DNA of 64,000 nt from Narcine bancroftii (taxonomy: Eukaryota), in the NCBI RefSeq assembly GCF_036971445.1, contig NC_091472.1:225928001-225992000 (forward strand), written 5' to 3'. Each line of letters begins with the position of its first letter. Position 1 is the first letter of the stretch. This document shows positions 3,685 through 63,047 of the stretch, in pieces. The translations under genes and the position numbers were made by a program. A model generated the notes under the pieces. The model saw only the letters and a list, made by a program, of their open reading frames with translations, was not told the DNA's origin and made no database searches.

Positions 3685-6530
3685 AGGTTACGCGTCGTTT
3701 CGGCTAGGCTGTTTCTACCGGCTGGCTAAGGTCCAGGTGTGCCGCCTTGAGTCTGTCGACTGTGAATAGCTCCCCCTTTGCCCCGATGTCCAGGGTGAAT
3801 GTCTTGCCTGAGCTTTGCAAGACTTTGTAGGGGCCTTCGTAGGGGTGCTGCAGGGGCATGGTGTGTGGGCCTCGCTGGATGAAAACTAAATCAGCCGTGG
3901 CCAGCTCTTTGGGGACGCAGGACAGGTGGGTTCCGTGGTGGGTCAGTGGTGGGGGCGCTAGTGAGGCGAGCTTACCTCGCAAGTCTGCCAGTAAGGTCTG
4001 ACTCTCGGTCGTGGAACCAATGCTCAAACCGAAGAACTCCCCAGGTAGCAACAGTGGTGCACCATAGACCAACTCCATGGACAATACCTGTAGGTCTTCT
4101 CTCGGAGCCATTCTGATGCCGAGCAGGACCCAGGGCAATTCATCCGTCTAGTTTGGGCCGGTGAGGCAAGTCATGAGGGCCGACCTTAGGTGCCGGTGTA
4201 AGCGCTCCATGAGGTCGTTGGCTTGGGGAAGGTATATGATGGAGTTTGATCTCCAAGAGGTTCACCAGCTGTGACCAGAGGGCGGATGTGAACTGGGCAC
4301 CTCTGTCGCTCATCATGTGAGCCGGGACTCCAAACCTGGCAATCCATTGGGTGAGTAGGTTCCTGTCACAGGACTCAGCGGAAGTGTCTCTCTGTGGGAT
4401 GGCTTCCAGCCACCTCGTCGTGTGGTTGACCACGGTCAAATATAGTGGGCATCTCTGGACACTGGCAGGGGTCCCACGATGTTGATGTGTATGTGTTCGA
4501 ACCTCTTGGCCGTGGAATCAAACTGCTGTACCAGGGCCTTTACATGGCGCTGGACTTTGGAGCTCTGACACTGCGTGCAGTTTCTCACCATCTGGGCTAC
4601 CTGTTTCTTGAGGCCGTGCCACATGAACCGTTCCACCACCATGCGAATTGAGGTCTTGACTGAGGGGTGAGCCAAGTCATGGACCATGCTGAAGGCCTGC
4701 GGTCTCCATTGCGGTGGAGATGTCGCAGAGCAGCACGTCGGGGCTGTCCGGAAGTTTGAGGTCCTGGAGCTGGAGACCCATGATGGCGACGCAGAAAGCT
4801 TGTGTGTCCGCATCCTCCTTCTGAGCCTGTGCTAGCTGGGCATAGTCCAGGCCATGGGCAAAGCTGTGGATGGCTCGCCAACCAGTGATCCTTTGACATT
4901 GCAAGGGCCTGTGTGAGTGGTTTGTGGTCGGTGAAAATGGTGAATGGCCTGCCCTCCAGTAAGTACCGGAATGTCTGATGGCCATGTACAGGGCCAGAAG
5001 TTCCCTGTTGAAGGCACTGTATTTCAGTTCTTGGGGGGGGCGGAGGTGCTTGGTGAAGAAGGCAAGCGGGCGCTACTGGCCATTGACTGATTGCTCCAGG
5101 ACGCACCCGAAGGTCGTGGCTGAAGCATCACCAAGAATGCGGTGTGGGCGTCCAGCTGCGGGTGAGCTTGTAGGGTGGTGTTCGCCAGGGCGTCTTTCGT
5201 CGCAGTGAAAGCGCTCTCGGCCTCTTCCGTCCATTCCAGGGTTTTATTCTTGGTGGCGATCAGTGCGAACAACGGTCGCATGATGCGAACCGCCCCCGGG
5301 ATGAAACGGTGCTAGAAGTTGACCACACCAGCGAATTACTGTAGACCTTTGAGGGTATCAGGCTTCGGGAATTGGCATACGGCTGCGACGTTCTTGGGTG
5401 CCAGGGCAGTCCCATCCGCACAGATGGTATGGCCAAGGAACTGTAGGGACTGCTTGCCGAACTGGCACTCGACCACGTTGACCGTGAGGCCAAACTCTGC
5501 CAGACGGGCGAATAGCGCACAGAGATGGACCTTGTGTTCTTTGTTGTCCTAGCAGGCGATGAGAATGTCATCGAGATAGATAAACACAAAGTCCAAGTCT
5601 CTGCCCACTGCATCCATCAGGCGCTGAAATGTCTGGGCCGCGTTTTTAAGACTGAAGGGCATCCACAGGAACTCGAATAGGCCGAATGGGGTGATGATCA
5701 CGGTCTTGCTGATGTCGTCAGTGTGGACCTGGATCTGGTGGTAACCCTGTACCAGGTCGACCTTCGAGAAAACCCGAGTGCCGTGCAAGTTGGCCGTAAA
5801 GTCCTGTATATGTGGGATGGGATGTCGGACTGACGTAGTCGCATCGTTGAGACGACGGTAGTCCTGCATGGGCGCCAAACCCCAGAAGCCTTCAGGACCA
5901 TGCAGACAATTTCCAGCTCCTGCAGTCAGGAGAACTCCTCCTTTGCCAGTTGCAGCTTCTTGGGGGGCACCCACCTGGCCTTGGCATGGAGGAGAGAGCC
6001 CTGTGTCAAAATGTGGTGGCCATGCCATGTTGGGGCATGCTGGGGCATGGCAGAAGTAAACTGCGGCTGCAGGATGGAGGGGAACTTGTCGAGCATGTGG
6101 GAATACTCGTACTTGGGGGTGCTGATGGAAGCTATTCCCAGGCCACAAGGACCTGTGGAGTTGAGGCGGCGGATTGGATGGTACAGGCATGTACCAATTG
6201 CTTGCCTTTGATGTCCACCAACAGGCTGTGCGCCCAGAGGAAATCGGCTCCCAGCAGCGCTGTGCCCACCGAGGCCAGTATGAATTTCCAGCGGAACTTG
6301 TCCTTGCCAATCTGGATCTGTTTGCTGAGTGTGTCGAAAGTCTTGATGGAGGATCCGTTGGCTGCCTGTAGGGTTGGGCCCCGTGCGCGGGTGTGGGTCT
6401 CGAGGGCAGTCAGGGGGAGCAGGCTCAGTTCTGCTCCGATGTCTACCAGGAAATGTCGGCCACTGGGCTTATCAATCACATGCCCGGCCAGCTGTCACAG
6501 CCATTAACGGCAGCTGCCTAGGTCATTTCC
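3685..6530 (-). pseudogene. pol: Gypsy pol (protease, RT, RNase H, integrase), frameshifted
   Basis: FLVDIGAE (PR), DYRRLN, KVDLVQGYHQI and YLDD (RT), FTDHKPL (RH), HPSVK..CTQCQ, SDRGAQF and YEGPY (IN), spread over several ORF-track fragments. Confidence 0.92.
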
Positions 6531-7172
6531 CTGGAACAAACAGGGCTGCCTGCACTTGTGGGCTTGGGCCCCCCAGCATTGATGGTAGAAACACCAGGTG
6601 GGGTGCTGTTCTTGCTGTGCTGTGCTTGCAGCTTATTGGGCCCTGGGTGGGCGACCTGGCTGAGGGCGGCCTCGTTTTCTTGCTTGGTCCACCAGAGGAC
6701 ATCTGTGCAGGCTGCGACTCGTCGTGGATCGGAGAAGTCCTCATCTGCCAGCAGGAGTTGGATGTCCTCAGGCATCTGGTCGAGGAAAGCCTGTTCGAAC
6801 ATCAAGCAGGGTCTGTGGCCCTCTGCTAGCAGCAGCATTTCATCCATGAAGGCAGATGAGGTTCTGTCGCCCATACCATCCAGGTGTCGGAGCCTGGTGG
6901 CGCGCTGCCGCCAGGAGAGGCCGAAGGTGCCGAGGAGGAGGCTTATGAGAGCGAGGTATTTACCTTCCTCTGGTGGGTTTATGGATGAGGTCGTCCACTA
7001 TGGCTGTGGTTTCATCATCGAGCGCGTTCATGACATGGTGGAACATCATGGTGTCTGATGTGATGTGTCGGAGGTGAAACTGCACTTCCGCCTGCCCAAA
7101 CCAAGTGCGTGGGTGAGGCGTCCAAAAGGGGGGGAGTTTTACCACGACTGCATTGATTGCTACGGAATCCAT
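6518..7172 (-). pseudogene. gag: Gypsy gag with CHCC zinc motif
   Basis: AVVVKLPPFW..WFGQAEVQF N-terminus; CFYHQCWGAQAHKCRQPC near 6540-6595. Confidence 0.88.
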
Positions 7173-7200
7173 ATTGGGAGGCCAGAAAACCATCTGGACT

Positions 7201-7214
7201 CACTGGGGTCACCA
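7201..7214 (-). promoter_or_regulatory. Primer-binding site, tRNA-Trp type
   Basis: Minus-strand TGGTGACCCC starts 1 nt inside the 5' LTR boundary and is complementary to the tRNA-Trp 3' end (GGGGUCACCA). Confidence 0.8.
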
Positions 7215-7215
7215 A

Positions 7216-7472
7216 TGTAGCGATTGCTACACAGAATGAAACACACCACTACCACATTAGAGGTTTCAAACAAGCTGTTTATTCAAACTTTGCACGCGCC
7301 TCTTTAAGGACGGCATGAGCTCTGCCCCCGCATCAGGGGTGATGTCACTATGATCGCCTGAGGCGCGCATCCTGGCCTAAGCCACATGGCACGGAAGTCC
7401 CCCGATGGCGCCATTTTCTTGCGGCTGCCCTGCTGGTGGGGCCGATTCGCCATGCGGATGTCCGCTGCCACA
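7216..7472 (-). repeat. 5' LTR of the Gypsy at 3395-7472
   Basis: Direct repeat of 3395-3664, adjacent to the PBS. Confidence 0.93.
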
Positions 7473-9409
7473 GATAGCATGTTAATTGTGCGTAGCCACA
7501 CAGTCATGGGTGTATAATGAGTAGAGCAGTGGGCTAAGCATGAACCCTTGAAGATGTTGATCATCAGTAAGGAAAAGACGTTATTCTAGTTCATACTGAA
7601 GTTCATACTCAAGTCTTCTGAAGAGGAAGTCCAGGAACCAGGGGTGGGCTGGGGTGGGGGGGGGAGTTGGTGCAGAGCTCCAGTGTTTGGAGCTTCTTGG
7701 CCAGCACTGAGGGAATAATGGTGTTGAAGGCTGAACTGTAGTCGATGATGAGCAGCCACATATATGAGTTGCTGTTTTCGAGGTGATCCAGAGCTGAGTG
7801 GAGAGCCATTGATAGTGCGTCTGCTGTGGAGCAGTTGTGATGATGGGTGAATTACTTTGGATCCAGTCCTTTGTTTGGTATATGTTATTTCAGGCCATGA
7901 CCAACCTCTCAAAGCATTTCATCACAGTAGATGTTATTGCCATGGTGCGAATGTCATTGAGGCAGCTCCATCTGTTCTTCTTGGGCACCACGATGATTGA
8001 TGCCCTTTTGAAACTGGTGGGTACCTCTGACTTCAGCATTGGGAGATTGAAAATGTCCATGAACGCTCTGGTTAGTTGGTTGGCACAGATTTTCAATATC
8101 CTGCCAGGTACACCATCAGGACCTGACACCTTGCAAGGGTTTGCCCTCTTTACGTCAGCCTCAGAGGCAGATATCACAGGGTCCTCAGCCTTTGCAGGGA
8201 TTCTCGTAGGTACTGATTGGTTCTTCTTCTCAAAGTGGGCATAGAAGGTGTTCAGCTTATCGAGTAGTGAAGCTTCACAGCCATCTATGGTGTTCACCCT
8301 CATTTTGTGCGATGGCATGGCCTGTACTCTCTGCTGGCGAGTATCTGTCTTTGGTTGCATCTTCCTCTGTAATTGCTTCTTTGTGGCTGATAAAGCCTTC
8401 CACAGGTCGTACCTGGACTTCTTGTAGATATCTGGATCACCGGCCTTAAATGCCCTTGATCTCGCCCTCAGCAGGTTCATCCAAGGCTTCTGGTGGGGAA
8501 CATCCTATATGTGTATGTGGGCACACACATCCAAGCAGTTCTTGAATGAGTCAGTAACATTGCATTTTTATTCAAGTCTAAGGATGAGTTCTTGAATATG
8601 GTCCAGTCCACCGATTCAAGGCAGTTCTACAGGCGCCCCTCCCTCAATCATACTTTCACCATCTTCTCCACTGGTGCTGTAGTCCTCAGTCTCTGCTTGT
8701 ACACCGGGAGTAGAAGTACAGCCAGGTGATCAGACTTGTGAAGAGCAATTGTGGAATGGCTTGTAGGCATTTTTCATGGTGATATCGCAGTGGTCAAATG
8801 CATTGGCTCCTCTGGTCTTGCAGGTAGTTGGTCAGAGACTTTTTCAGGTGGGCCTGATTGAGGTCCCTGACAATGATTGGGAAGGCATCAGGGTGTGCTG
8901 CTCATGGTTGCTGATCACAGTGCTCAGTCCCTCCAGAGCAAGCCTGATGTTAGCCTGAGGTAGAATGTATGCTGTGACCAGGATGATGGTGGTGAACTCC
9001 CTTGGCAGGTAGAATTAGTGGTACTTGATCGCCAGATGTCCAAGTCAAGGGAACAAGATTGGGATATGACCGTCACATTTGTGCACCATAATGAATTGAT
9101 GATGACACAAATGCCGCCTTCCCTGGTTTTTCCTGATGCCAATGTCTGGTCCACATGGTGGAGGGTGTACCCCATGGGCTGAAGCATCATGTCCAGAATG
9201 CCCTTGTTTCTGTGAAGCACATCACACAGCACTGCCTGATGTCCCTCTAATCTTATAATCTGGCTGTGAGTTCATTGAGTTTGTTTTCCAAGGATTGTAC
9301 GTTGGCCAGTGGATGGTAGTGAGTGGAAGCCTTTGGGCCCAACGTCATAGATTAACCAGTAGCACTCCCTCTGCGTCTTCATGGTCTGGTCTTCTTTAAA
9401 TAGTGTGTG

Positions 9410-9600
9410 GGTTGGCTGCTTGTAACTCCTACAGATTTTAAATGGCTGGTTTGCTGGCTGTTTGAATCTCCCACAGTGTTTAAATGGCCTGTGCCTTGGC
9501 TGCTCGTAACTCCTGTGGAGCTTAAATGGCCCATTCGCTGGCTGTTTGAAACCCCCGCAGTGTTTAACTTGCCTGTGCATCAGCTGTTTAAAGCTGCCGC
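9410..9600. repeat. Degenerate tandem repeat (about 75-bp unit made of about 37-bp subunits) at the LINE 5' region
   Basis: ttggctgct.gtaactcct...ttaaatggc...gctggctgtttgaa..ccc.cagtgtttaa repeated about 2.5 times. Confidence 0.75.
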
Positions 9601-9809
9601 GGTCCAATGGAGTCTGCCACTTCTGTCAATTGCAAGGTTTGCTAGCGTCCTGAGGACATCAATATTCACAGGTTGGTGTTGGGGCTCGCTACTTTCATTA
9701 TGTCATACTTGCACAGTACCTTCAAAATCTGGTCCTTAGCTTGGCAGACCTACATGTTTTAGTGTTATGTGGCGCACTGTGCAGTAGAAGAAAGCACAGC
9801 CACCACGTT

Positions 9810-12715
9810 TGGGCACAGCCGTCTGTACTGGCCGCGACAAGTCCAAATGGGCCGTCTTCAAGCGGTCCACTGTAAAAAGTTCCTCCTTTCCCCCCACATC
9901 CAGAGAGAAAGTTCTACTGGATCGCCAGAGGACTTTATACGGACCTAAAATGGTGCCCTCTGCAGTCCTCTCCGGACGAACACAAACTGTGCCGAGTCCA
10001 GTTCCTTGGGGTGGTGGGATGGCCAGTTGCCATGGCGTGATGGGGGTGGAGGCCCCCCAGGGAGGCCAGTTTCCTGCGGAGATCCGCCAGCAGGTTCATG
10101 TCCCCAGGTGCTGGTCGGCTTCTGAGCTGAAGAATTCGCTGGGCAGGGAAAGTGGTGCGCCGAATACTAGTTCTGATGACAAGACTTGCAGGTCCTCCTT
10201 GGGTGCTGTCCTGATCCCAAGGAGGACCCAAGGCAGTTCGTCTGCCCCGTCCGGGCTGGTGAGTCGGGACATGAGGGCAGTCTTTAGGTGCTGGTGAAAC
10301 CTCTCCACCAAACCGTTGGACTGTGGGTGGTAGGCCGTGGTGTGGTGGAGTTTAACCCCCAAGAGCCTCGCCAGCTGGGCCCATAGCGCGGAGGTAAACT
10401 GGGCGCCCCTGTTGCTGGTGATGTGCGGCGGCACGCCAAAACTGGCGATCCACTGACTGACTCATGATTCGGTCCACTACCGTAAAGAGGTTGCGCACTT
10501 CCCTGGACACTGGCAAGGGGCCGATGACATCAATGTGGATGTGCTGGAACCTCTGTGCTGACAAGTCGAAGGGTTGGATTGGGGCCTGCATGCGTCTGTG
10601 GATTTTGGAGGCCTGGCACCTAGTGCAGTTCCTAGCCAACTCCGCCACCTCCTTCTTGAGCCCGTGCCACACGAACCGTTCTGCCACCATCCGCACGGTC
10701 ATCTTCACTGAGGGATGAGCGAGGTCGTGGATTAGGCTAAGGACTCTCGCCCTCCATTGTGTCAGTACTACCGGGTGCGGTGGGCCTGTGGAGACGTAGC
10801 AGAGCAGCGCATCCGGGCTGTTGGGCAGCTGGATGTCCTTGAGGTCAAGGCCCGAGATGGCAGTCCTGAGAGCTGTTGGGCCTGGGCTAGCTGTATATAG
10901 TTAAGCTCAGGGGCTAGCGTGTTGATGGATGGGTGCGAGAGTGCGTCCGCTACTACGTTGTCCTTGCCTGCTCTGTGCCGGATGTCAGAATTGAATTCCG
11001 ACACGTAAGAGAGGTGGCGCTGTTGTCTGGCTGACCATGGGTCCTTGGCCATGGCGAGTGCCTGGGTGAGGTGCTTGTGGTCTCTGAAGACTGTGAAGGA
11101 TCTGCCCTCCAGGAAATAGTGGAAATGGCGGTTGGCCAAGTACAGCGCCAGGAGCTCCCGATTGAATGCGCTGTACTTGAGCTCCAGCAGGTGCAGCTGT
11201 TTACTGAAAAAGGCTAGTGGGTGCCATTGTCCATTGAGCCGTTGCTCTAGAATTCCCCCGACCGCCTTAGTTGAGGTGTCCAACTAGAGTGTCATGTGTG
11301 TGCCTCCGGGCATGGGTGCACCAGCAACGTTGCACTGGCGAGAGCTTCTTTCGTTTTGCCATTAAAGCCTTATCCACCTCTTCCAACCAGGATAAGGTAT
11401 TTTCCTTCACGGCGATAAGTGCGAACAGTGGACGCATGGTATGGGCGGCACTGGGGATGAACCGATGGCAAAAGTTCACCATCCCCACGAACTCTTGCAG
11501 GCTTTTGAGGGTGGAAGGTTTGGGGAAATGTTGGATGGCTGCCACCTTCTCCGGTGCTGGAGTGGCCCCAGACGCCGAGATCGTGTGCCCCAGGAATTGC
11601 AGCGACTACTTCCCAAACTGGCATTTGGCCGCGTTGACTGTGAGGCCGAACTCCGCCAGCCGGGCAAATAGGGTTTGGAGGTGGACCTTGTGTTCTTTGT
11701 GGTTGTGACTGTTGATGAGGATATCATCTAGGTAGATGAACACAAAGTCCAAGTCCCTACCCACTGCGTCCATGAGGCGCTGGAATGTCTGGGCTGCATT
11801 CTTTAACCCGAAAGGCATCCAAAGGAACTCGAAAAGGCCGAACAGGGTGATGATCGCAGTCTTTCCCACATAGTCGGGGTGCACTGGGATCTGGTAATAT
11901 CCTTGCACAAGGTCAACCTTGGAAAAGAACTGAGCGTCGTGGAGGTTGGCCAAGAAATCTTGTTTGTGGGGGACTGGGTACCTCTCGGGGGTTGTGGCAT
12001 CATTCAGCCATCGGTAGTCTCTGCAGGGTCTCCAGTCCCCAGACGACTTGGGGGCCATGTGGAGCAGTGATGCCCAGGCACTGTCTGAAAGCCGGACGAT
12101 CCCCAATTTTTGGAGCCTTGAAAACTCCTTCTTCGCCTACTGCAGCTTTTCGGACGGCAGACATCTGGGCTTAGCGTGCAATGGGGGGCCTTGCGTGGCA
12201 ATGTGGTGGAAAACTGTGTCGGGGGAAAGCGGCATTGATACGTGGCTCCAAGATGGCGGGGAATTCATGGAGTATATTGGCATACATCCCTGGCAGCAGC
12301 CACAGCGGTGATCTCGGGTCTGATGGCATCCACAGTGTCCAAAAGCACGGAGTGGAAAGTGCAGGCGTTGACCAACCTCTTGCTCTTCATGTCGACCAGT
12401 GAGCCCTCAGGAAGTCGGCCCCCAACAGCATGGTGCCCACTGAAGCCAACCCGAACCTCCAGTGGAATTTTTCTTTGCCGATTTGGATCTGCGCCCTACA
12501 GGTGTCATAGGTCTTGATGGTGGAATAATTGGCCACCCGCAGGGTTGTACCAGGAGATCGGGTGTGAGTCTCCAGCATTGTCGGGGGTAGGACGCTCAGC
12601 TCAGCCCCTATGTCCACCAGGAAACACCGGCAGGTGGATTTATCAGTGACATAAAGGAGACTGTTCACGTGGCAGCCATCACAGCCATCAACGGCGGCTG
12701 GCCTGGTCGTTTCCC
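9810..12715 (-). pseudogene. pol: Gypsy pol, frameshifted
   Basis: FLVDIGAE, WAS.LHMAPK, YLDD, ELLALYLA, HHTTAYHPQSNGLVERFH, YGP motifs. Confidence 0.92.
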
Positions 12716-13326
12716 TGGAAGCTGCAGGGTTGGCGGCACTTATGGGCTTGCACTCCCCAACGCTGATGATAAAAGTATCAGGACAAATGGTTCTCTTCTG
12801 GCTTGTGCTTGGGGGCGGCTTGCGGTCAACTGGTTCCTGGTCTTGAAACCTGGTTGAGTGCTGCCAGAGGGCGTCCGCTCGGGCTGTGACCTTACATGGG
12901 TCCGCAAAATCTTCATCTGCTAGGAGCAGCTGGATATCCTCCTGCATTTGTTCGAGGAAAATCTGGCAGAAGAGGAAACAAGGTTTATGATCTTCCGCCA
13001 GGGCCAGCATTTCGTCCATTAACGCTGATGGGCTGCTGTCCCCAAGATCCTGGAAGCCTGTTGCTTGGGGGGCGAGGCCAGAAGTCCTCAGGAGCAAGTT
13101 CTTGAGGGTGGTATATTTACCCTCAGCCGGAGGATGATGGATGAGGTTGTCCACCTTGGCTGCTGTGTCTTGATCCAGCACGCTCACAACGTGGTAAAAC
13201 ATCGTGGCATCCGCTGAGGTTTCTAAGGTGGAATTGCGCTTTCGCCTGCCCAAACCACGTCCGCAGGCGATGGGTTCAGAAGGGGGGAAGCTTGATTGCC
13301 ACGGCATTAACCTCAGCTGAATCCAT
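12700..13326 (-). pseudogene. gag: Gypsy gag
   Basis: Homologous to 6518-7172 (TMFYHVV..LD, LGD..PSALMDEMLALA, FYHQRWG.QAHKCRQPC). Confidence 0.85.
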
Positions 13327-13685
13327 GTCTTTGAGTCCAGAAAGGCATCTGGGCTCATTGGGGTCACCACTGTGACGCACTGCACAGTTGAAGAAAGCAC
13401 AGCCACCACATTGAGAGTCGTTAACGACTGTTTATTTGAATTTAATGTGCGCCCCTTTAACGGCAGTGCTGGCTCAATCACCACATGCGTGGTGATATCA
13501 TAATCACTGCCTGAGGCGTGCGCTGAAAGGGAGGTTTGAGTCAGGAAGAACCCCTGACAGTGCCATTTTCCTTTGGCTGCCCCACCACATGGTGTTATAC
13601 ACGGGGCCAGTTCGCCGCCACAGTTCCTTACATTTAGCAGTGTTTTCCAATCATCACAAGATGAAGAGAACAAGAGATGGCACCT

Positions 13686-13963
13686 TGTTGGGCACTACCA
13701 GTTACCTCAATAATTACAGAGACAAAGACTGAGGGGAACGATAGGCTTTATTAAACAAGAGACTGCTGGCCTGCCCTCCTGGTGACTTCTGGTCCTTGAT
13801 TCCTCCCTGATCCCCCCCATGTGACCCAGACCATAAAGGTCAAATCCCCTCTCCCTCTCCTCATTTTCTTAGCCTTGACCCGGGCCAGCAGTCTCGTGTG
13901 TAATAAAGCCTATCGTTCTCCTCAGTCTTTGTCTCGGTGATTATTGGGGCAACTGGTAGTGCC
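13686..13963. repeat. Inverted repeat of about 81 bp (13691-13771 vs 13883-13963): inverted R-U5 copy at the element's left end
   Basis: Manual reverse complement aligns with about 7 mismatches; the left arm starts TGTTGGG, the reverse of the LTR end CCCAACA. Confidence 0.92.
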
Positions 13964-15283
13964 AGTAATTTATTATACAAGATTTTGAAGGTCTCTGGTA
14001 ATGGAGAAGTTGCTGTGCCCCGAATGGCTAGAGGTAGCCCCCCAAGTCCCGGGTGTATCTGAACTCTTTGAACAACTTTAATAATTCCTCATTGCCGCCG
14101 CCGAAGTAGTCAACTCCGATGAGAAGAAGCTGAAGGTCCTACAGCTGTGAGTCGGCCAAAGGGCTTTCCAGGCCATCCAAAGCAGCATGACCTACGTCGA
14201 GGCGATGGCTGAACTGCGGACGCTGTACAAGCCAAAGGTGAACGAAATCTACTCCCGTTACCTGCTGGCATCCCGAAAACAACAGTCCGCTGAAGAGTTC
14301 ATTCAATGGTTGGTCACACTGGGAAGAGACTGTTTGGAGAACCCCATGGCCACAATATCATTGACTAAGTGCATGGAAGATCTGGTCTGAGACACCTGTG
14401 TGTCGGGAATGAGGTCAGATTATATCCAACAACTTCTCCTCGAGGAGGATCAACTCCCGCTAAAAAGGGCGATTCGACTGATCAGAACTCTAGATTCGGC
14501 TCAGCGCCACACGGAGTTGATTGCGGGCAGAAGTGGGCCTACCATGAACGTTCTGCCACAATGGCCGCCATCCTGGGACTCAGCATTGGGGGTTACCGAC
14601 CTGACCACTGCTGTGGTGACACTGGCATCGTCGAGATGCAATTTCTGTGAGCAGGCTAGGCACTCGAGGTGCTTCTGCCCCGCGAAAGCAGCCACCTACT
14701 CGGGTTGCGGGAAGAAGGGCCATCACCAGAAGGTCTGTAGGTCCAGAACCCTGTCCAGGAGCAGGCAGTGTATGTGCATGAGGAACTTCCGGTGCCGACC
14801 GTATGCGCGGTAAGGGGGGGGGGTGCATTCTTACCTGCTACCGCTCCCAATCTATACACCGGAGCCTACCACATGGATGACATCACTTCTGCCCGCAACG
14901 ACTCAACTTCCCCCTTCTTCTCTGACGAGGGTAGCGAGGTCAACATGGAGGTTGCCATCTTGGGCGGGCTTCCCCACCGATGAGGAGGAGGAGGAGATGC
15001 CTGTCCTGGGATCAGTAACCCTGGACCAAGCCAGCCCTCACCTGATCACAAACTCCATGATGCAGATCTTTTCTTTTTAAACTTTATTTATTCGTTCAAA
15101 AAACAAATAATATATGACATATACAGCAATTAAACATGAACATGAACATTTTTTTATATATATGTAAAAAAAGAAAAGAAAAGATCGCCCGACCCCTTCA
15201 GCCAACTCTCCTAAGGAGAGCCATAAAAAAAGAAAAAAGAAAGAATATTTAAAAAAAAGTTAAATATAAATATTAAAATCTAA

Positions 15284-18200
15284 TCAATATAAATGGAAAT
15301 GTAAATATTCCGAGTATAACAACCACTTATTAATAAAAAAATATAATTATCATGCGAAACATATGTAATTTTTTCCTTTATTAAACAGTATTTCATCTCA
15401 TTATGTCATCTATTAATATCAATCATATTTGTATCTTTCCACGTAGTAGCAATACATTTTTTTTGCTACAGATAAAGCTAAATATACAAAAACAAGCTGA
15501 AACTTATCTAATCCCAAGCTTTTCAGAGGTTGCAAACTACCCAATAAAAATACTGTTGGATCTAAAACTATTTTAATCTTATACAGATATTCTAAAAACG
15601 ATTGAATTTTCTTCCAAAGAGATTGTATATATATACATGACCGAACAGCATGAAAAAAAGTTCCAACCGTATCACCACATGTTAAACACAAATCTGATTC
15701 ATTAAAACCATATTTTAAAAAATTTTTTGGGTGTCAAATATAATTGATGTAAAAAATTGTAATAAATAATTGCATAACGTGCATTTATCAATCTAGTTAC
15801 ACTATCATAACAAATATCTAACCAATTCTCTTCAGAAAAAGTAAAACCAATATCCGCTTCCCATTTAATTTTAGATCTATCCCAACTCTTTTTATCCATA
15901 CCATCCTGTAATATTTGACACATAAATGAAATATATCCCTTCTCTGGTACCTTCATAAGAGAAGTCTCAAATTTAGTCATTTTAGGTAAAATCATATCTC
16001 AACCAGACATACATTTTACCAAAGATCAAATTTGATAATAAAGAAATAAAGAATTCTTATCAATTCCAAAATCTTCACTCATCTGATTAAAAGATAAAAA
16101 CTTACCCTCTTTAAAACAATCTCCCAAATTTTTCACACCTTTAAATCTTTGATTATGTATTGAAAAAGAAATGTTGATTATTATACAACGGAGTCAAAGC
16201 CAATAATTTACCCCTAGAACCTATCATTTTATTTTTCTTTATCCATAACTTCATTAAATGTTTTAGTATAGCCACATTATATTGTTGTAACAAATTCATA
16301 TTCCACCTAAACAAAAATTGATGTATTTCAAACTCAGAAATACTTGCCTCCTCAATGTTAGACCAACTCGGAGGCCGTACCAAATCCATCAATGAACTAA
16401 TAAATTTAAGTTGGGCTGCTTCATAATAATTTTGAAAATGTGGTAAACTTAATCCCCCTAACTCATATTTCCAAGTTAATTTATTCAAAGCTACTCTTGA
16501 AAATTTACCCCTCCATAAAAACTCCCTAATCATTTTATTCAAATCTCGAAAAAAAAATTTATCAAGTAAATACGGAATAGATTGAAACAAATATTGTATA
16601 TGCGGAAAGATATTCATCTTAATTGTATTTATCCTTCCCATTAAATTAATAGGTAAATCTTTCCATTTAATCAAATCAGTTTTAATTTTTTTCATTAACA
16701 GAGTATAATTTAATTTATATAAAGATTGATAATTAACATTAAAAATTATACCCAGATATTTAATTCGATCAGTCCACTTCAAATTAATAATATTCTTATA
16801 AACTGAATAATCTCCTTCACTGACTGGTAATATTTCACTTTTTTCCCAATTAACTTTATATCCAGAAAGACATCCATATTGTATTAAACATTCCTTCAAA
16901 TGCAAAAGTAACTGAGCTGGATTTGTTAAATACACCAATACATCATCAGCAAATAAATTAATTTTATATTCCTCATCTAAAACTTTCTTACCTTGTATCT
17001 GTGTATTTTGTCTTATCAACTGTGCTAAAGGTTGAATCACTAATGCAAACAAAACTGGTGATAAAGGACAACCTTGACGAGTTGATCGAGTTAAATTAAA
17101 AGTTTCCAAAATCAAACCATTCGTCAATACTCTAGCTACTGGTTTACTATATAGAGCCCTAATCCAACCAATAAAAGAAGGACCAAACTTAAATTTCTCC
17201 AAAACTTTAAACAAAAAATTCCATTCAACTCTATCAAATGCTTTTTCTGCATCTAAGGATATCACCATCGGATGATCTAAAAATTGTCAAAATCTATTAA
17301 TCAAACTAATCACTCTCAAAATATTATCTGAAGCATATCTATACTTTATAAAACCTGTTTGATCAATATATATCAACTATGGTAAAAATTTAGCCAATCT
17401 ATTCGCTAATACTTTAGCTATTATTTTATAATCTACATTTAACAATGAAATTGGTCTATATGAAGGTACCTTCAAAGGAACTCTATCTTTTTTCTAGGAA
17501 TTACTGTAATTAAAGCACTAGAACAAGACTCAGGTAAATCATAATATTCTCCAACTTGATGTAATACATCCCCAAACACTAGATAAATCATCATTAAAAA
17601 ATTTATAAAATTCAACCAAAAATCCATCATCACCAGGCAATTTACCATTTGGCATTTCCAGCATAGCCATTTTAATTTCCGAATCAGTAAATGGTTTTTC
17701 TAACTCCTGTATATCTTCATTCTCTAATATCGATAAATTCAACTGTGATATAGTCCTCGATATCTGTTCTTTCTTTAATTGCCACGTCAATACTTTGTAT
17801 GCTTTCTCTCCCCATTCATAATACCATTGTTTAGTCCTATTAATCACACATTCAAATTGATAAGATTGCAAGGTATTATATTTCAATTTCAGCCTAGATA
17901 ATTCTATTTTCTGATCTTCTATAGCATCTTTCTGAAATTCCTTTTCTAACTCATTGATCTGTTTCTCTAATTCAAAACTCTGATTTAATCGATTCTTTTT
18001 TATTTTAGAAGTATAACTAATTATTTGTCCTCTCAAATAGGCTTTCATAGCATCCCATAATATAAACTTACTTTGAACAGATTTAGAATTTTCTTTCAAA
18101 TAAAAATTAATTTGTTTTTTCAAAAAAATCAATAAATTCCATATTTTTTAACAACATTGTATTAAATCTCCAACGATAAGCTATTTGAATTTTCTCAGAA

Positions 18201-44937: not shown

Positions 44938-47202
44938 TGTGATAGTACAGATTCTATCACCAATATGTATATGTACATATGTACAGATGGTAGTGTAATA
45001 TGACTGTGATTAGCTGAGAGTGTAGCCACACCTACTGGCAGGTCTTAAAGGATTGCTCCTAGCCAGACCAGGTCATTCTGGACTGGTCGACCTACTTGTG
45101 ATATGCTCCAGTCTTTTAGTTAATAAAATTGTAATGCGTGTCGAAAGAACCAAAGACTTGTTGATCCAAACTAGAAGTGGGGCTCGCAATTCTGGGTTGT
45201 GTGGTAGAGAACCCAGGATCATGCCGGACCCTGACCGCATGCGTCCCCACATGGACGCCCCCCCCCCCCGCCCCCCATACCCAGAAGGCACTCAAATGCT
45301 GCCTGGATTTTTTCTCTTACTATGCCCAAAGGGTTCCACACTATGTCAACAAGGCACGGCCACTCGTCAAGACCACCTCCTTCCCCCTATCAACTGAAAC
45401 CAGAGCGGCTTTCGACTGCATCAAATCAGACATCACTGCTGCAACGCTGCACGCCATCGATGAGTCTATTCCTTTCCAAGTCAAAAGCGATGCGTCTGAC
45501 TTTGCACTGGCAGCCACTTTAAACCAGGCCGGCCGGCCGGTAGCCTTCTTCTCCAGAACCCTCCAGGGTCCTGAGAGCCAACACTCCTCTGTCGAGAAAG
45601 AGGCCCAGGCCATAGTCGAGGCAGTATGTCGTTGGAGACACTACCTCACTGGCAGGCGCTTTACATTGCTGACTGACCAATGCATGGTCTCCTTCATGTT
45701 TAGCAATACCAGCAATGAAAGATCAAGAATGACAAAATCGCCAGGTGGAGAATCGAGCTCTCCACCTTTAATTATGACATACCGTATCGGTCAAGTAAAC
45801 TCAACGACCTGCCAGATGTGCTCTCCAGGGGGACTTACGCCAACATTCAACTGGACAGACTCCAGAAACTCCACGAGGAGCTCTGTCATCCAGGGGTCAC
45901 TAGGTTTGCGCACTTTGTCAAAGCTCGCAACCTGCCCTACACGGTCGAGGAGGTTCGCTCCATGACCCGAGACTGCCCAGTGTGCATTGAATGCAAGCCC
46001 CACTTCTTCCGTCCGGAGAACACCCACGTCATCAAAGCCACCCGCCCCTTTGAGCATCTCAGCATGGACTTCAAGGGGCCCCTACCGTCAACCAACCATA
46101 ACACCTACATCCTTACGGCCATTGACGAGTACTTCCACTTCCCGTTCGCTGTGCCCTGCTCGGACATGACTGCCTCCTCAGTTATAGAGGCCCTGCACAG
46201 CATCTTCACCATCTTCGGGTACCCCAGTTACATCCACAGTGACAGGGAGTCCTCGTTTATGAGTGTGGAGCTGCGGCAGTACCTTCTGGAGCGTGGTATT
46301 GCTTCAAGCAGGTCCACCAGCTATAACCCACGTGGTAATGGGCAAGTCAAAAGAGAGAAAGCGGTTACGCTTGCCCTCCAGTCCAAAGGTCTCTCCACCT
46401 CTCGCTGGCAGGATGTGCTCATGAGTGCCCTACACTCCATCCTCTCCCTCCTATGCACCATGACCAATGCCACCCCCCATGAAAGGATGTTCTCTTTCCT
46501 GAGGAAATCTGAGTCGGGTACAACCATACCAGCATGGCTCACGGTTCCCGGTCCAGTCCTTTTACAACCCCTTGGTTGACCGAGTGACTCTGCTCCATGC
46601 GAACCCCCATTGTGCCTATGTTGAGTACCCAGACAGACGGGAGGTCACAGTCTCGGTAAGGGACCTAGCCCAAGCCGGATCAGGTGCAGCAGTGCCTTTA
46701 ACCCAACCTCCCCTATTCCTTCTCCCTCAGGTCATGTAGTTGAACAGAGGGACCAGCACCACCCACCAGCTCAGGCCAGACTGTCGACAATGCCGTTGGG
46801 GAATTGAGCAAAGGAGTGGCTCCACCCTACAAGCCTGCCAGCGACACGACTCTGGCGATCCCAATCCCGGCACCATGTCGGTCACACCGGATGGTCAGGC
46901 CCCCTGACCGGTACAGCCCCTAACCTCCATCCACCTGGGGTTGGTTCTCAAAGAAGGGGTGAATGTGATAGTACAGATTCTATCACCAATGTGTACATGT
47001 ACATATGTTCAGATAGTAGTGTAGGATGACTGTGATTGGCTGAGAGCGTAGCCAAACCTACTGGCAGGTCTTAAAGGATTTTTCCTAACCAGACCAGGTC
47101 ATTCTGGACTGGTCGACCTACTTGTGATATTCTCCAGTCTTTTAGTTAATAAAAGCCTTGGTTTGGATCAACAAGTTTTTGGTTCTTTCAACGTGCACTA
47201 CA
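44938..47202 (+). mobile_element. Mag-like Gypsy element with internal deletion (gag, PR and most of RT lost) and inverted U5 in the 5' LTR
   Basis: LTRs 44938-45171 and 46964-47202, 5-bp TSD gttag/attag splitting the L1 RT, PPT aaagaaggggtgaa at 46950-46963, RH (SDASD, EKEAQAI) and IN (LCHPG, DFKGP, HSDR, PRGNGQ). Confidence 0.95.
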
Positions 47203-52403: not shown

Positions 52404-52934
52404 AGGATTAATTGGTTAGTGATTTTGTCTATTTAACTTTACATTTTAAAGTCAGTTATGTGAGGCAATGGGTCAAGTGTTAGCTTGGAACTTGCAATCA
52501 TATACTGTATGTATCATACACTTGGATCTTGTATAGCAAAGAAGAGAGTGAATCCAGGAGAACATCTGTTGTCCAAATTGAGTCTTAAGTGGCAACTTTT
52601 GGAACAGTAGAATTTCAATTCAGTGAGGGTTAAGGGGGGAGAAGGCAGGAGAATGGGGTTAAAAAGTGTGGTGATATGGCTGTATGTACTGGCTGGCCAA
52701 CCCTCTGAGGGTCTCCCTACTTTAGCTCCTCCCTTGATCCTTCCCATGTGAACCCTGGTTGGCCATAAAGGTCGAATCCCCTCTCCTTCCCGCTCATTTT
52801 CCTAGCCTAGACCTGGACCAGCAGTCTCTTGCTTAATAAAGCCTATCGTTCCCGTCAATCTTCTGTCTGCATCATTATTGGGCTACCGATAGCGCCCAAC
52901 AATTTATTAAGCAAGATTTTAGAACTCTCCAATT

Positions 52935-53760
52935 ATGGAGAAATTGCCGCATCCCGAAAGGCTGGAAGTAGACCCCCAAATTCCGGGTGCATCAGTACTC
53001 TTCGAACAGTGGGTGAACTGTTTCAATAATTTCCTCGACGCCGCTGTGGAGGTGGTTGACTCGGATGAGAAGAAGCTCAAGATCCTTCAAGCCCGAGTCG
53101 GCCAGAAGGTCTACCTGACTAACTTAGGCTGTGCGACCTACACCAGCGCGATGGCTGAGTTGCGGCCGCTCTATAAACCCAAGGTGAACTCAGTTTACTC
53201 CCGTTACCTGCTGGCATCCTGGAAACAACAGCCTGGTGAGTCTGCCAAAGAGTTCATCCGGTCCTTGGTCACACTGGGAAAAAACTTTTGGGGGATCTCA
53301 CGGGCCCGGGGACGATATCATTGAACCAGTGTGTGGAAGAGCTGATCAGAGACGCTGGTGTGTCAGGGTTGAAGTCAGACTACATCTTGCAAAGAATCCT
53401 CGAGGAGGACCCACTCCCTCTCAAAAGGCCATCGAACTGGTCAGAACTCTGGACTCGGCCCAGCACCAGGCGGTGTCGATCGTGGACAGAAGCGAGCCAA
53501 CCATGTACGTTCCACCATGAGGGTCATCAGCCTGGGACTCAGCATTGGGCATCAGCGACCTGACCGCGGCTACAATCATACCGGCCGCATTGTCGAGGTG
53601 TAACTTCTGCGGGCAGGCTAGGCACGCGAGGCACTTCTGCCCCATGAAAGGAGTGACATGCTCGGGCTGTGGTAAGAGGGGCACTATCAAAGGGTCTGCT
53701 GGTCCCGATCGCAGCCAGTGAGCAGGGCAGCAGGCGTTCTTGAAGAGCTTCCGGCGCTGA
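52935..53760 (+). pseudogene. gag: Gypsy gag with twin zinc knuckles
   Basis: MEKLPHPERLEVDP..., homologous to 14001-14810; CNFCGQARH...CP...CSGCGKRGH. Confidence 0.85.
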
Positions 53761-53959
53761 CCGTGTGCGCGGTGATGGGACCACCATCTTACCGGCTACC
53801 GCTCCCAGCCTTGGTACCTTGACCTACTGCGCTAGTGATGTCACTTCTGGCCGCCTCGACTCCACTTCAGGCTTCTTCTTCATCCGATGCTGCGTGGTCA
53901 ACATGGGGGTTGCCATCTTGGGCGGGCCTCCCCACCGACGACAACGACGAATAAATGCC

Positions 53960-56899
53960 AGTCCTCGCTTCAGTGAAGCTAAATCAAGCCAGTCCTCACC
54001 TGATCTCGATCTCAATGATGCAGATCGAAGTGAACAGACATAAAATTAACGTCTTTTTGATAGCAGCAGTACGGAAAGCTTCATACACCCTGATGTGGTC
54101 CAGAGACTCTCCCTCCCAGTACGACCCGTGACCGGGATGGTTTCAATGGCAGCCAGGGACCAACAGACAAGTATTCAGGGGTTCTGTGTAGCGTCGCTGA
54201 TGGTGGGGGGTGGGGGGAGAAATGTTATAATTACTTTGTTTTACTAGTCATGCCCTGCCTCTCCTAGCCCTTGATTTTCAGAATCAGTTTAGGAGCGTGA
54301 AGATGGCGTTCGAAAGCTTCCAACCATCATTGACCGTTTGCAGCCCTCGGTGTTTGGGTGACCATACCGACCAAATGGCCAGCCATTGTTACCATCCTGT
54401 GGCTCCAACACCCAATCCCCAGCACCATCTAGCGGTATGGGCACTTGGTCCTCGGCATTGTCCAGCGGTTCCGGCACTCAGTCCCTGGCTACAACCTGCT
54501 GCCTCACCACTTTAAGGGTGACCCCTCCGTCACGGATTGCAAACCTATCGCCACCAAGAGTCGGCGCTACAGTTCGGAGGATATGCAATTTATCCAGGCT
54601 GAGATTCAGCGATTCCTGGCGGAGGGGATCATAGCCCCTAGCACCAGTCCCTGGAGAGCACAGGTCCTCATGGTCAGAGGGGCAGACAAGCCCCGGTTGG
54701 TAATTGACTATAGTCAAACCATCGACCACTTCACTCAGCTGGATGCGTACCCGCTCCCACGTATAGCCGACTTGGTCAATAAGGTCGCCAAATATAGAAT
54801 TTGTTTGACCATTGACCTCAAGTTGGCTCACCAACTTCCTCTCTGTCCGAGCAATCGAATCTATACTGGATTCTAAGCCGACGGGAAACTTTTCCACTTC
54901 CTGCGGGTACCCTTCGGCATTACTAACGGTGTTTCTGCTTTCCAGAGAGTAATGGACTGGATGGTGGAGGAACACGGGCTGACACCAATGTTCCCCTACC
55001 TCGACAATGTCATCATCTGAGGCTATGATCAGCAGGACCACGACACAAACCTCGCCAAGTTCTTGCGTATGGCCAAGTTACTTAACTTGATGTACAACAA
55101 GGACAAGTGCGTGTTCAACACAGAGCACCTGGCCCTTCTTGGATGCGTCATGGCACACGGTGTCATTGCTCCTGACCCTGACTGCATGCGACCACTTCTA
55201 GAACTCCCTGTCCCGAGCACACTGAAGGCACTGAAACGATGCCTAGGGCTGTTCTCATTCTATGCACAGAGGGTGCCCAACTACACTGATAATGCCCATC
55301 CTCTAATTCGGTTAACCACGTTTCTACTATTGGTGGAGGCCCAAGCTGCTTTTAATCAGATCCGTGGAGACATCGCTAAGGCCACAATGTATGCTGTGGA
55401 TGAGTCTGTCCCCTTCCAGGTGGAAAGCGATGCCTCCGACTTCGCGCTGGCCACCATATTAAACCAGGCAGGCAGGCCAGTAGCATTTTTTTCCCGTACC
55501 CTTCACGGCCCCGAACTCCAGCACTCCTCCATCAAGAAGGAGGCGCAGGCGATCGTTGAGGCAGTGTGCCACTGGCAGCACTACCTAACTGGTAAGAGAT
55601 TTACCCTGTTGACTGATCGGAGGGCAGTGGCCTTCATGTTCAGTGCCAAACAACAGGGTAAAATCAAGAACGACAAGATTCTGAGGTGGAGGATTGAGTT
55701 ATCCACCTACAATATTATGACATCTTATACCGGCCAGGTAAGCTCAATGATCCCCTGGATGCCCTATCCCAAGTGAAGTGCGCCAGTGCACATCTCGACC
55801 ATCTCCAGGTCCTGCACAACAGTCTGTGCCACCCCGGAGTCACAAGGGTCTATCATGTCATTAGGTCAAGGAACCTCCCCTACTCCGTCAAGGATGTCCG
55901 GTCCACAACCAGACGCTGCCAAATCTGCGCTGAGTGTAAGCCTCAGTTCTACCGGCCAGACAAGGCACACCTCATCAAAGCCACCCGCCCTTTCGAACGA
56001 CTCAGTCAATTTCAAGGGCCCCCTCCATACCACAAATAGGAATGCCTACTTCCTGATGGTGGTGGACGAATTTTCCGGATTCCCCTTTGCAATTCCTTGC
56101 CCAGATATGACCTCAACCATGGTCATCAAGGCCCCGAGCAGTATCTTCACTCTGTTCAGGTACCCCGACTATATTCATAGTGACTGGGGGACCTCGTTCA
56201 TGAGTGAGGAGCTGCGTCAGCACTTCCTGACCAGAGGCATAGCCACCAGCAGGACCACCAGCTATAACCCTAGAGGTAATGGCCAGGTGGAAAGGGAGAA
56301 CGGCACCATCTGGAAGGCAGTGCTCCTGGCCTTCAGGTCCAAAAATTTACCAGTGTCCTGCTGGCAGGACATTTTGCCAGAAGCCCTCCAAGCTACCCGG
56401 TCATTACTCTGTACTGCAACTAACACCACCCTGCATGAATGCCTCTTTGCTTTCCCTAGGAGGCTGGCGAATGGTTCTTCCATCCCTCCCTGGCTGACAT
56501 CCCTAGGGCTGGTTCTCCTTCGGAAGCACGTCAGAGGCCATAAGACGGATCCACCTCATTCATACCAGCCCCCAGTATGCATTTGTGAGGTATCCAGACG
56601 GCCATGAGGACACAGTGCCCTTACGAGACCTGTCAAGGGCCGAAGACCCCGAGACTGCCTTGCCGGCTTCTGTCCACGCCGCGGTCCCGATGGTGCCACA
56701 CCCAAGCACAGCATGGGAGTCCTACCCCTCCTGCAGCTGCGGAGGACCCCTCCCAGCACTTAAGGAGTCCACCGCCAGCACCCCAACCCCCACAGTTCTG
56801 GCAGCGGACACTCCCCCGTCGGCCCCCTCTTTGGAGGAACGCCGTACTGCAATGCCGGTTCCCTGGCAATCCGGCAGACAGAGGAGGCCGCCTGTGTAA
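53960..56899 (+). pseudogene. pol: Gypsy pol, frameshifted
   Basis: PR, RT, RH and IN motifs in ORF fragments 54445-54876, 55063-55776 and 55773-56607. Confidence 0.92.
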
Positions 56900-61322: not shown

Positions 61323-61784
61323 TAAGACTGCAAGCTCAAGACAGACAATCACAAGCCAGTGAACCAAACATCAGTGGTGGGAATGTTACTGGAGGGGATC
61401 AGGAGACAGGATCTTTATGCACTTGGAAAAACAATGACTAATTATGGAAAGTCAGCATAGCATTGTGTATGGGAAATTGTCTCACAAACTCGGTAGAGTT
61501 TTTTGGAAGAGGTGATCAAAAGGATTGGAGAGCTCAGGTAGATGATGTCCAAATTGTCTTTAGTAAGTCCATTGACAAGGTTTCATAGGGTAGGCTGGTC
61601 CAGAAGGTTAGATCACATGGGACGCATGCTGACTAGCCAACTGGATACAAAATTGGCAAGGTGGCAGAAATCAGAGGGTGGTAATGGAGGGTTACTTATC
61701 AGATTGGAAATCTGTAACCAGTGGTGTACTGCAGGGATTTGAGCACAGCTGACAGATGTTTGTTTCATATATATATATATGATA

Positions 61785-63047
61785 TTATCCAACTGCACAA
61801 AAACCAACAAGGTCGGGTTAGATACAGCAATGAGCTCTCTGAACCCTTCTCCATTAACAATGGCGTGAAGCAAGGCTGTGTTCTCGCACCAACCCTCTTT
61901 TCAATCTTCTTCAGCATGATGCTGAACCAAGCCATGAAAGACCCCAACAATGAAGACGCTGTTTACATCCGGTACCGCACGGATGGCAGTCTCTTCAATC
62001 TGAGGCGCCTGCAAGCTCACACCAAGACACAAGAGAAACTTGTCCGTGAACTACTCTTTGCAGATGATGCCGCTTTAGTTGCCCATTCAGAGCCAGCTCT
62101 TCAGCGCTTGACATCCTGCTTTGCGGAAACTGCCAAAATGTTTGGCCTGGAAGTCAGCCTGAAGAAAACTGAGGTCCTCCATCAGCCAGCTCCCCACCAT
62201 GACTACCAGCCCCCCCACATCTCCATCGAGCACACAAAACTCAAAACGGTCAACCAGTTTACCTATCTCGGCTGCACCATTTCATCAGATGCAAGGATCG
62301 ACAATGAGATAGACAACAGACTCGCCAAGGCAAATAGCGCCTTTGGAAGACTACACAAAAGAGTCTGGAAAAACAACCAACTGAAAAACCTCACAAAGAT
62401 AAGCGTATACAGAGCCGTTGTCATACCCACACTCCTGTTCGGCTCCGAATCATGGGTCCTCTACCGGCACCACCTACGGCTCCTAGAACGCTTCCACCAG
62501 CGTTGTCTCCGCTCCATCCTCAACATCCATTGGAGCGCTCACACCCCTAACGTCGAGGTACTCGAGATGGCAGAGGTCGACAGCATCGAGTCCACGCTGC
62601 TGAAGATCCAGCTGCGCTGGATGGGTCACGTCTCCAGAATGGAGGACCATCGCCTTCCCAAGATCGTATTATATGGCGAGCTCTCCACTGGCCACCGTGA
62701 CAGAGGTGCACCAAAGAAAAGGTACAAGGACTGCCTAAAGAAATCTCTTGGTGCCTGCCACATTGACCACCGCCAGTGGGCTGATAACGCCTCAAACCGT
62801 GCATCTTGGCGCTTCACAGTTTGGCGGGCAGCAACCTCCTTTGAAGAAGACCGCAGAGCCCACCTCACTGACAAAAGGCAAAGGAGGAAAAACCCAACAC
62901 CCAACCCCAACCAACCAATTTTCCCTTGCAACCGCTGCAATCGTGTCTGCCTGTCCCGCATCGGACTGGTCAGCCACAAACGAGCCTGCAGCTGACGTGG
63001 ACTTTTTTACCCCCTCCATAAATCTTCGTCCGCGAAGCCAAGCCAAA

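Follow-up and report, generated by a model that had tools for sequence, protein, structure and literature searches.

Reverse transcription in a widespread animal lineage of Ty3/gypsy retrotransposons is probably primed by the RNA of the elements themselves. In these elements, the primer-binding site adjoining the 5' LTR is complementary to an arm included in this same LTR, and the two strands covary among families. Self-priming had been put forward in a first-pass annotation of a 64-kb stretch of Narcine bancroftii DNA (hereafter the window, which means the whole stretch analysed), and it appears, at the level of sequence, to be well supported by the clade-wide covariation, by the fixed register of the pairing relative to the LTR edge and by fold-back insertions. 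The mechanism that we favour, and that we hold to be probable by analogy with Tf1, would take place in the 5' leader: the arm and the primer site would fold together, the RNA would be cut at a UAA(A)|RCC joint and the element would thereby obtain a self-made primer.

The window element, which belongs to a family referred to here as family 1, lies on the plus strand. Its 5' LTR (52667..52901; 235 bp, TG...CA) ends where the first-pass annotation had placed its right end. Indeed, the 3' LTR of a related copy, L013, aligns with LTR positions 1-235, the flanks of 29 other copies diverge before the TG and, in relatives, 5-bp target duplications agree with these limits. After a one-base spacer (52902..52902, an A in 17 of 18 families and a T in the other one) comes the primer-binding site (52903..52916), which is devoid of TGG, as had been noticed, and is the exact 14-bp reverse complement of the R arm located at 52827..52840, whereas the longest inverted pair obtained in 100 shuffles of the 263-nt region is 8 bp (mean 6.0). 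The stem formed by these two strands is present in both the MFE and centroid folds. The arm, which would constitute the 3' part of the self-primer, is closed by an AATAAA (52835-52840) and followed by an RCC joint and the 5' strand of a second stem (52841..52848, delimited by family comparison and fold), the predicted cut being at 52840/52841; the 3' strand of this predicted stem is near the U5 end (52887..52895). The two promoter-like motifs already pointed out in the LTR are present, i.e. CATAAA (52764..52769), a TATA-like putative promoter, and the initiator-like CTCATT (52793..52798), a putative start site that adjoins the end, at LTR position 131, of the family-1 fold-back copy L124. Downstream, a decayed gag-PR-RT-RNase H-integrase region extends over several frames (52935..56695); with its frame changes, at least two stops in pol and no 3' LTR, this copy is dead. 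At first look, family 1 comprises 1790 DNA and 20504 gag candidates, of which 40 and 150, respectively, were scored.

A tRNA gene search of the 64-kb window found none, an Rfam scan of positions 52600-53000 gave three weak matches at chance level, and no relative of the element was found in the viral contigs searched. The window also carries, on the minus strand at about 5200-13700, two related Gypsy elements that the first-pass annotation considered CsRN1-like and endowed with canonical primer sites; CA, one nucleotide and TGG are indeed seen there, and we take these sites to be of the tRNA-Trp type. Furthermore, a 42-bp tandem repeat of about five units is located at 9395-9604, and RT-bearing ORFs of other, probably non-LTR, elements at 15070-17286 and 61718-62995, one of them interrupting the 14-kb family-1 copy.

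A protein search retrieved 603 relatives, the named ones being from rays, catshark, crab, nematode, anemone, rotifer, tunicate and mussel; the nearest named proteins for family 1 are from rays and catshark. Many relatives are single ORFs of about 1200 aa. Gag, PR, RT, RNase H and integrase are arranged in the order expected for Ty3/gypsy, and TG...CA LTRs, a PPT and a target-site duplication are found in relatives. The identity of the RT-RH-IN region among 18 families ranges from 40 to 93% (median 57%). Two CCHC arrays (zinc knuckles) are present in 46 of the 49 aligned polyproteins, and none of eight polyproteins taken from these 49 shows a chromodomain at E<=0.05, so that the lineage fails two chromovirus features, the chromodomain and the single CCHC array. 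Some members of the Tf1/sushi group are also devoid of a chromodomain. Cigr-1 has a single ORF of roughly 1200 codons and a 245-bp LTR. On gag and integrase features alone, the lineage fits a Mag-like, non-chromodomain Ty3/gypsy group; it resembles the Mag lineage, including Cigr-1, by its two CCHC arrays, its short LTRs and its broad range of marine animals, this comparison being one of descriptions. Chromoviruses usually carry one CCHC array and the Mag lineage two (PMC2577118), and a supplement of PMC6238403 assigns Cigr-1 to Mag; two protein motifs of our lineage had no match in the covered portions of four supplements of that article. Some relatives (L205-L210 and P0016) are animal retrotransposons that come from contigs bearing a bacterial MAG label, host contamination being the most likely cause. 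At L062, the LTR contig has a depth about 100-fold that of gag in four presumed RNA runs, a ratio that is drawn from contigs only and is not interpretable.

The scans provided 80 metagenome loci (the best 80 of 244) and six genome loci, and 37 loci (genome G000 excluded) were taken as covering the gag start. An inverted repeat of 11-19 bp is found at p<=0.01 in 28 of these 37. Nine have no clear stem: in L136, L147, L155 and L176 it is damaged or bulged, in register or partly deleted, L175 has a weak one of 9 bp, and L128, L146, L161 and L206 display no recognisable LTR upstream. Eighteen family representatives were then hand-picked, 16 from the scanned loci (including the bulged L155) and two from G000; this set omits L175 and the four loci lacking an upstream LTR, and one assembly supplies three of its members and another one two. 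Among these 18 families, stem positions 1-13 provide 234 pairs, of which 231 are Watson-Crick, although the stem sequences differ. At positions 5-13, 159 of 162 pairs form in register, against 25-56 when one strand is slid by 1-3 positions, and a primer site makes 8.8 of 9 pairs with the arm of its own family, against 4.4 of 9 with that of another one. Covariation is also found within family 1, where an arm triplet is the complement of the primer-site triplet in 53 of 74 copies through four subfamily variants (18, 17, 15 and 3 copies), shuffling giving a mean of 16.6 and a maximum of 29 (counts that ignore kinship). Where a 3' LTR was found, the exceptions mostly resemble later single mutations. 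L135 departs from its family by a change shared by its two LTRs and its primer site, whereas L132, a young copy, shows an arm change in both LTRs and an unchanged primer site.

The second stem and the TAA(A)|RCC joint are conserved features that the first-pass annotation had missed. The arm is 13-19 nt long and ends with TAA(A) or TAAAA, and the spacer is 1 nt in all 18 families. RCC directly follows the arm in 17 of them, the exception, L210, having GTC in its 5' LTR and GCC in its 3' LTR. In 17 of 18 families, a second stem of at least 3 bp starts from the joint, while the null gives a mean of 6.2 and a maximum of 12 of 18 in 1000, a support that exists at the sequence level only. In four families (family 1 of the window, L140, L152 and L155), the partner strand of this second stem ends 36-43 nt into the loop, a location that, according to the usual cleavage distance, would be past the poly(A) site. 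The partner being probably past this site, the second stem would occur only in the 5' leader of these four families.

The window also carries an element of a sister family, family 2 (44938..47202, plus strand, flanks matching at 4 of 5 positions). Its left end is folded back: U3-R up to the arm end (44938-45128) is followed by an inverted U5 (45130-45171) and then by a jump into pol, the 3' LTR being normal (46964-47202). In a second family-1 copy, from another subfamily (13686..15068, plus strand), an inverted piece of U5-R (13686-13769) is joined to an LTR, a primer site and gag remains. In G000, the exact junction pattern of the family-2 fold-back gives 159 matches and a control pattern none; normal family-2 junctions number 343, the two patterns being of unequal stringency. 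When one mismatch is allowed, the fold-back count rises to 256, with no further places among the matches listed. From 100 places among the matches listed, 89 junctions in 87 loci were examined. In 61 of these 89 junctions, the inverted copy extends as far as LTR positions 1-8. It ends at positions 40-59 in seven, which are probably alignment breaks in a U3 microsatellite, at 140-142 in 13 (mostly one tandem unit), at 135 in two that share one junction, at 152-153 in three and at 169, 126 and 112 in one each. Three junctions (L107, L117 and L220) continue past U3 into PPT/pol; L117 and L220, which have no recognisable U5, may be truncations. Family 1 has three fold-back junctions.

Among 14 candidate palindromes tested, both ends could be located in nine, one of which is a 3' LTR, and six of the eight free ones have perfect 5-bp target duplications. 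Being flanked by such duplications, these palindromes were most likely formed before integration, as palindromic cDNA. Of the 89 junctions, L218 is the only one compatible with a simple inversion of the loop in an already inserted copy, and a replication-based inversion fails on the ends at LTR position 1 that are accompanied by target duplications. The expectation that all the extensions stop at the start site is true of a minority, most of them reaching the U3 tip. Globally, the fold-back copies show that the plus-strand DNA terminates in a copy of the primer site and that this copy pairs with the arm; they support the 52903-type site as the working primer site, whichever RNA is the primer.

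These insertions take several forms in G000. Palindromic mini-insertions of about 400-425 bp, terminated by U3 on either side and flanked by 5-bp target duplications, are found at L097, L099, L118, L223, L224 and L260; they could yield hairpin RNA. Tandem arrays of a 278-bp unit (LTR 6-239 plus an inverted arm/R copy), with up to six or more units, occur on several chromosomes with one common junction (L063, L110-L114, L122, L214, L253 and L263-L265); they are probably one non-autonomous, TRIM-like derivative. L117 and L119 share a 125-nt sequence that adjoins the arm end and precedes a full LTR.

According to the mechanism that we propose, the leader RNA would fold by pairing of the 13-19 nt R arm with the site located one base past the 5' LTR, the second stem would stack at the joint, and the RNA would be cut between the two stems, at UAA(A)|RCC, presumably by the RNase H of RT as in Tf1. 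DNA synthesis would then begin from the 5' piece, one base beyond the LTR. A start site ~30-40 nt upstream of the arm is weakly suggested by the promoter-like motifs and by a few of the fold-back ends; the primer would thus be about 45-55 nt long and paired by its 3' end only. The minus strong-stop DNA would correspond only to the loop of 21-66 nt, inside which the poly(A) site would lie; the confinement of this site to the loop would explain why AAUAAA is frequent at the arm end. At the end of the plus strong-stop DNA there would be a primer copy able to pair with the R of this same DNA, which could fold back or dimerise and be extended as far as the U3 tip; this would give the palindromic insertions observed. 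Folding back or dimerisation of this DNA on its own arm is probably the simplest source of palindromes. Several data fit this scheme less well. Indeed, a primer from the 5' leader does not by itself predict the three junctions that run into PPT/pol, only a minority of the extensions stop near the predicted start, where a hairpin could itself cause the stops, and, unlike in Tf1, the long unpaired tail of the primer would serve as template and then require trimming. Moreover, L134, L126 and L125 pair fully with a tRNA-Thr segment when G-U pairs are allowed.

The primer might instead be provided by the R copy of the 3' end: the RNA would circularise, the arm of the 3' LTR would pair with the primer site and be cut or trimmed at UAA(A), and the new DNA would fold onto the same R, so that the first strand transfer would be intramolecular. 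This would lead to the same covariation, would agree with the joining of a whole U3 to the arm in 61 of 89 fold-back copies and with the three that go further, and would avoid very short strong-stop DNA (the loop is only 21-24 nt in L173 and L210). However, the snap-back of the plus strand already accounts for the ends at LTR position 1, the partner of the second stem is close to the LTR end in four families and is probably missing from the 3' RNA end, some extensions end near the predicted start site, and no precedent was found in the parts of the literature covered. We thus consider this route unlikely, and the position of the stem partner in these four families and the fold-back ends close to the predicted start favour the 5' R copy. 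Less probable still is that the stem would only hide the 5' poly(A) signal or set the structure of the leader, some other primer being used. A canonical signal closes the arm in 11 of 18 families and, as the partner strand lies outside the LTR, masking would be specific to the 5' end, as the first-pass annotation had reasoned; nevertheless, the arm of seven families ends without a canonical signal, three of these seven carrying one in the open loop, a fixed 1-nt spacer and a fixed joint would not be needed, and the LTR edge harbours no other primer site, TGG being found there in none of the 18 families. As the joint is constant and the hexamer is not, masking would be secondary and have at most a side role, and it does not stand as a conserved job of the stem. 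Finally, chance complementarity or a misplaced LTR boundary has a negligible probability. It is true that the stem is AT-rich and that the fold of the whole region has a z of only -2.4 (4 of 200 shuffles being equally stable), but the shuffles, the covariation with an identical register in 18 families and, for the boundary, the paired LTRs and 5-bp target duplications refute this explanation.

A tRNA could also prime in trans. A match to a tRNA fragment, which the first-pass annotation had presented as evidence against self-priming, is lacking in the window family and is found in a distant one. Comparisons were made with an incomplete set of 45 distinct tRNA genes of G000 (19 anticodon types, Trp absent), a host that differs from those of L134, L126 and L125. 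The best match of the window primer site in this set has nine Watson-Crick and two G-U pairs out of 13, and its family makes seven Watson-Crick and three G-U pairs, with three mismatches, with nt 12-24 of tRNA-Thr. The site of L134 is the exact complement of these nucleotides (13/13, chance 0.003); L126 has 12 pairs plus one G-U and L125 11 plus two G-U, the tRNA-Thr genes (AGT, TGT) that allow full pairing being among L320-L369. Furthermore, among 1845 13-mers, this segment ranks first in 12 of 18 families; it also ranks first with the lineage profile, which makes 171 of 234 pairs with it (P = 0.002 and 0.0002 against column-permuted nulls, for a fit chosen post hoc). The primer could be a piece of tRNA-Thr that comprises its 5' end up to nt 24, the LTR arm being then a mask or decoy of the primer site; tRNA fragments do act as primers in Ty1/copia lineages (PMC6317226). 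Such a role is nonetheless very doubtful today: pairing with the own arm is higher (231/234), L155 and L162 have only six Watson-Crick pairs, when subfamilies diverge the primer site changes with the arm rather than staying with the tRNA, G000 has no junction between an LTR end and a tRNA-Thr copy, and the three good fits come from one nested subclade (in a tree with weakly supported deep nodes). The resemblance possibly reflects the origin of the arm rather than the present primer of the window family. In a broader and more tentative scenario, which we find rather improbable as a whole, a large animal Ty3/gypsy lineage primed by tRNA-Thr would have taken a copy of nt 12-24 (D-arm) into its LTR and become self-priming independently of Tf1; the mimic would be cut from the leader at the joint of the two stems, and, as a cost, strong-stop DNA would often fold back and leave palindromes and tandem LTR arrays in the host genome.

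Some of the features of the leader-based self-priming that we favour recall known systems. The poly(A) hairpin of HIV-1 holds AAUAAA in a stem, with both strands in the LTR region, and HIV-1 is primed by a tRNA. The AAUAAA of many of our families is likewise in a stem, but it pairs there with the primer site, and not all families keep the hexamer. In the half-molecule priming of Osser, Bryco and Bianca, the primer is cut from a longer RNA and pairs through an internal tRNA segment (PMC6317226). This recalls the fit to tRNA-Thr nt 12-24; however, the site of these elements is fixed by the tRNA, whereas that of our lineage drifts with the LTR arm.

Self-priming has been placed in Tf1/sushi, Tcn1 and TAR elements (PMC6238403, PMC6934838, PMC6317226, PMC7175516, PMC4600332, PMC2577118, PMC3601003), and the covered parts of these sources, PMC6238403 and PMC2577118 among them, state nothing about priming in the Mag and Cigr-1 clades. 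A search of literature listings (Repbase/GyDB notes and subscription papers being outside its scope) gave no description of self-priming, palindromes or tRNA-Thr fit for the lineage. In the Tcn1 chromoviruses and in the plant Ty1/copia TAR elements (Houba, Osr-1), self-priming was predicted from a complementarity between the LTR and the site located 0-5 bp past the 5' LTR (PMC6317226). The same complementarity is found here, in another lineage and in other hosts, and this comparison shows that self-priming arose more than once. The nearest likeness is with the Tf1/sushi chromoviruses, including Tf1 and Tf2 from Schizosaccharomyces pombe and Tj1, where a tRNA site is also absent and the primer site complements the LTR transcript of the element. 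RNase H frees the Tf1 primer by cleaving the RNA between bases 11 and 12 (PMC7175516, PMC4600332), and an additional U5 stem-loop is required (reference in PMC7175516). Our lineage differs from Tf1/sushi elements by the absence of a chromodomain match and by its two CCHC arrays, and from Tf1 by its arm of 13-19 nt, with a conserved TAA(A)|RCC end often placed on a poly(A) signal; moreover, the Tf1 primer consists of the first bases of the transcript, whereas the arm appears to lie 30-40 nt inside it here.

Besides, the fold-back insertions provide a genomic record of a reverse transcription intermediate and generate palindromes of 400 bp and tandem arrays with a 278-bp unit, while the resemblance to tRNA-Thr suggests how tRNA priming could have given way to self-priming. 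Such elements are missed when annotation requires a tRNA site, and they would also escape silencing by tRNA 3' fragments. The pattern is real throughout this lineage, which is devoid of two features of chromoviruses, and would represent a variant of the self-priming of Tf1; priming independent of tRNA, placed until now in chromoviruses and one plant copia lineage, would then also exist in a widespread lineage of animals.
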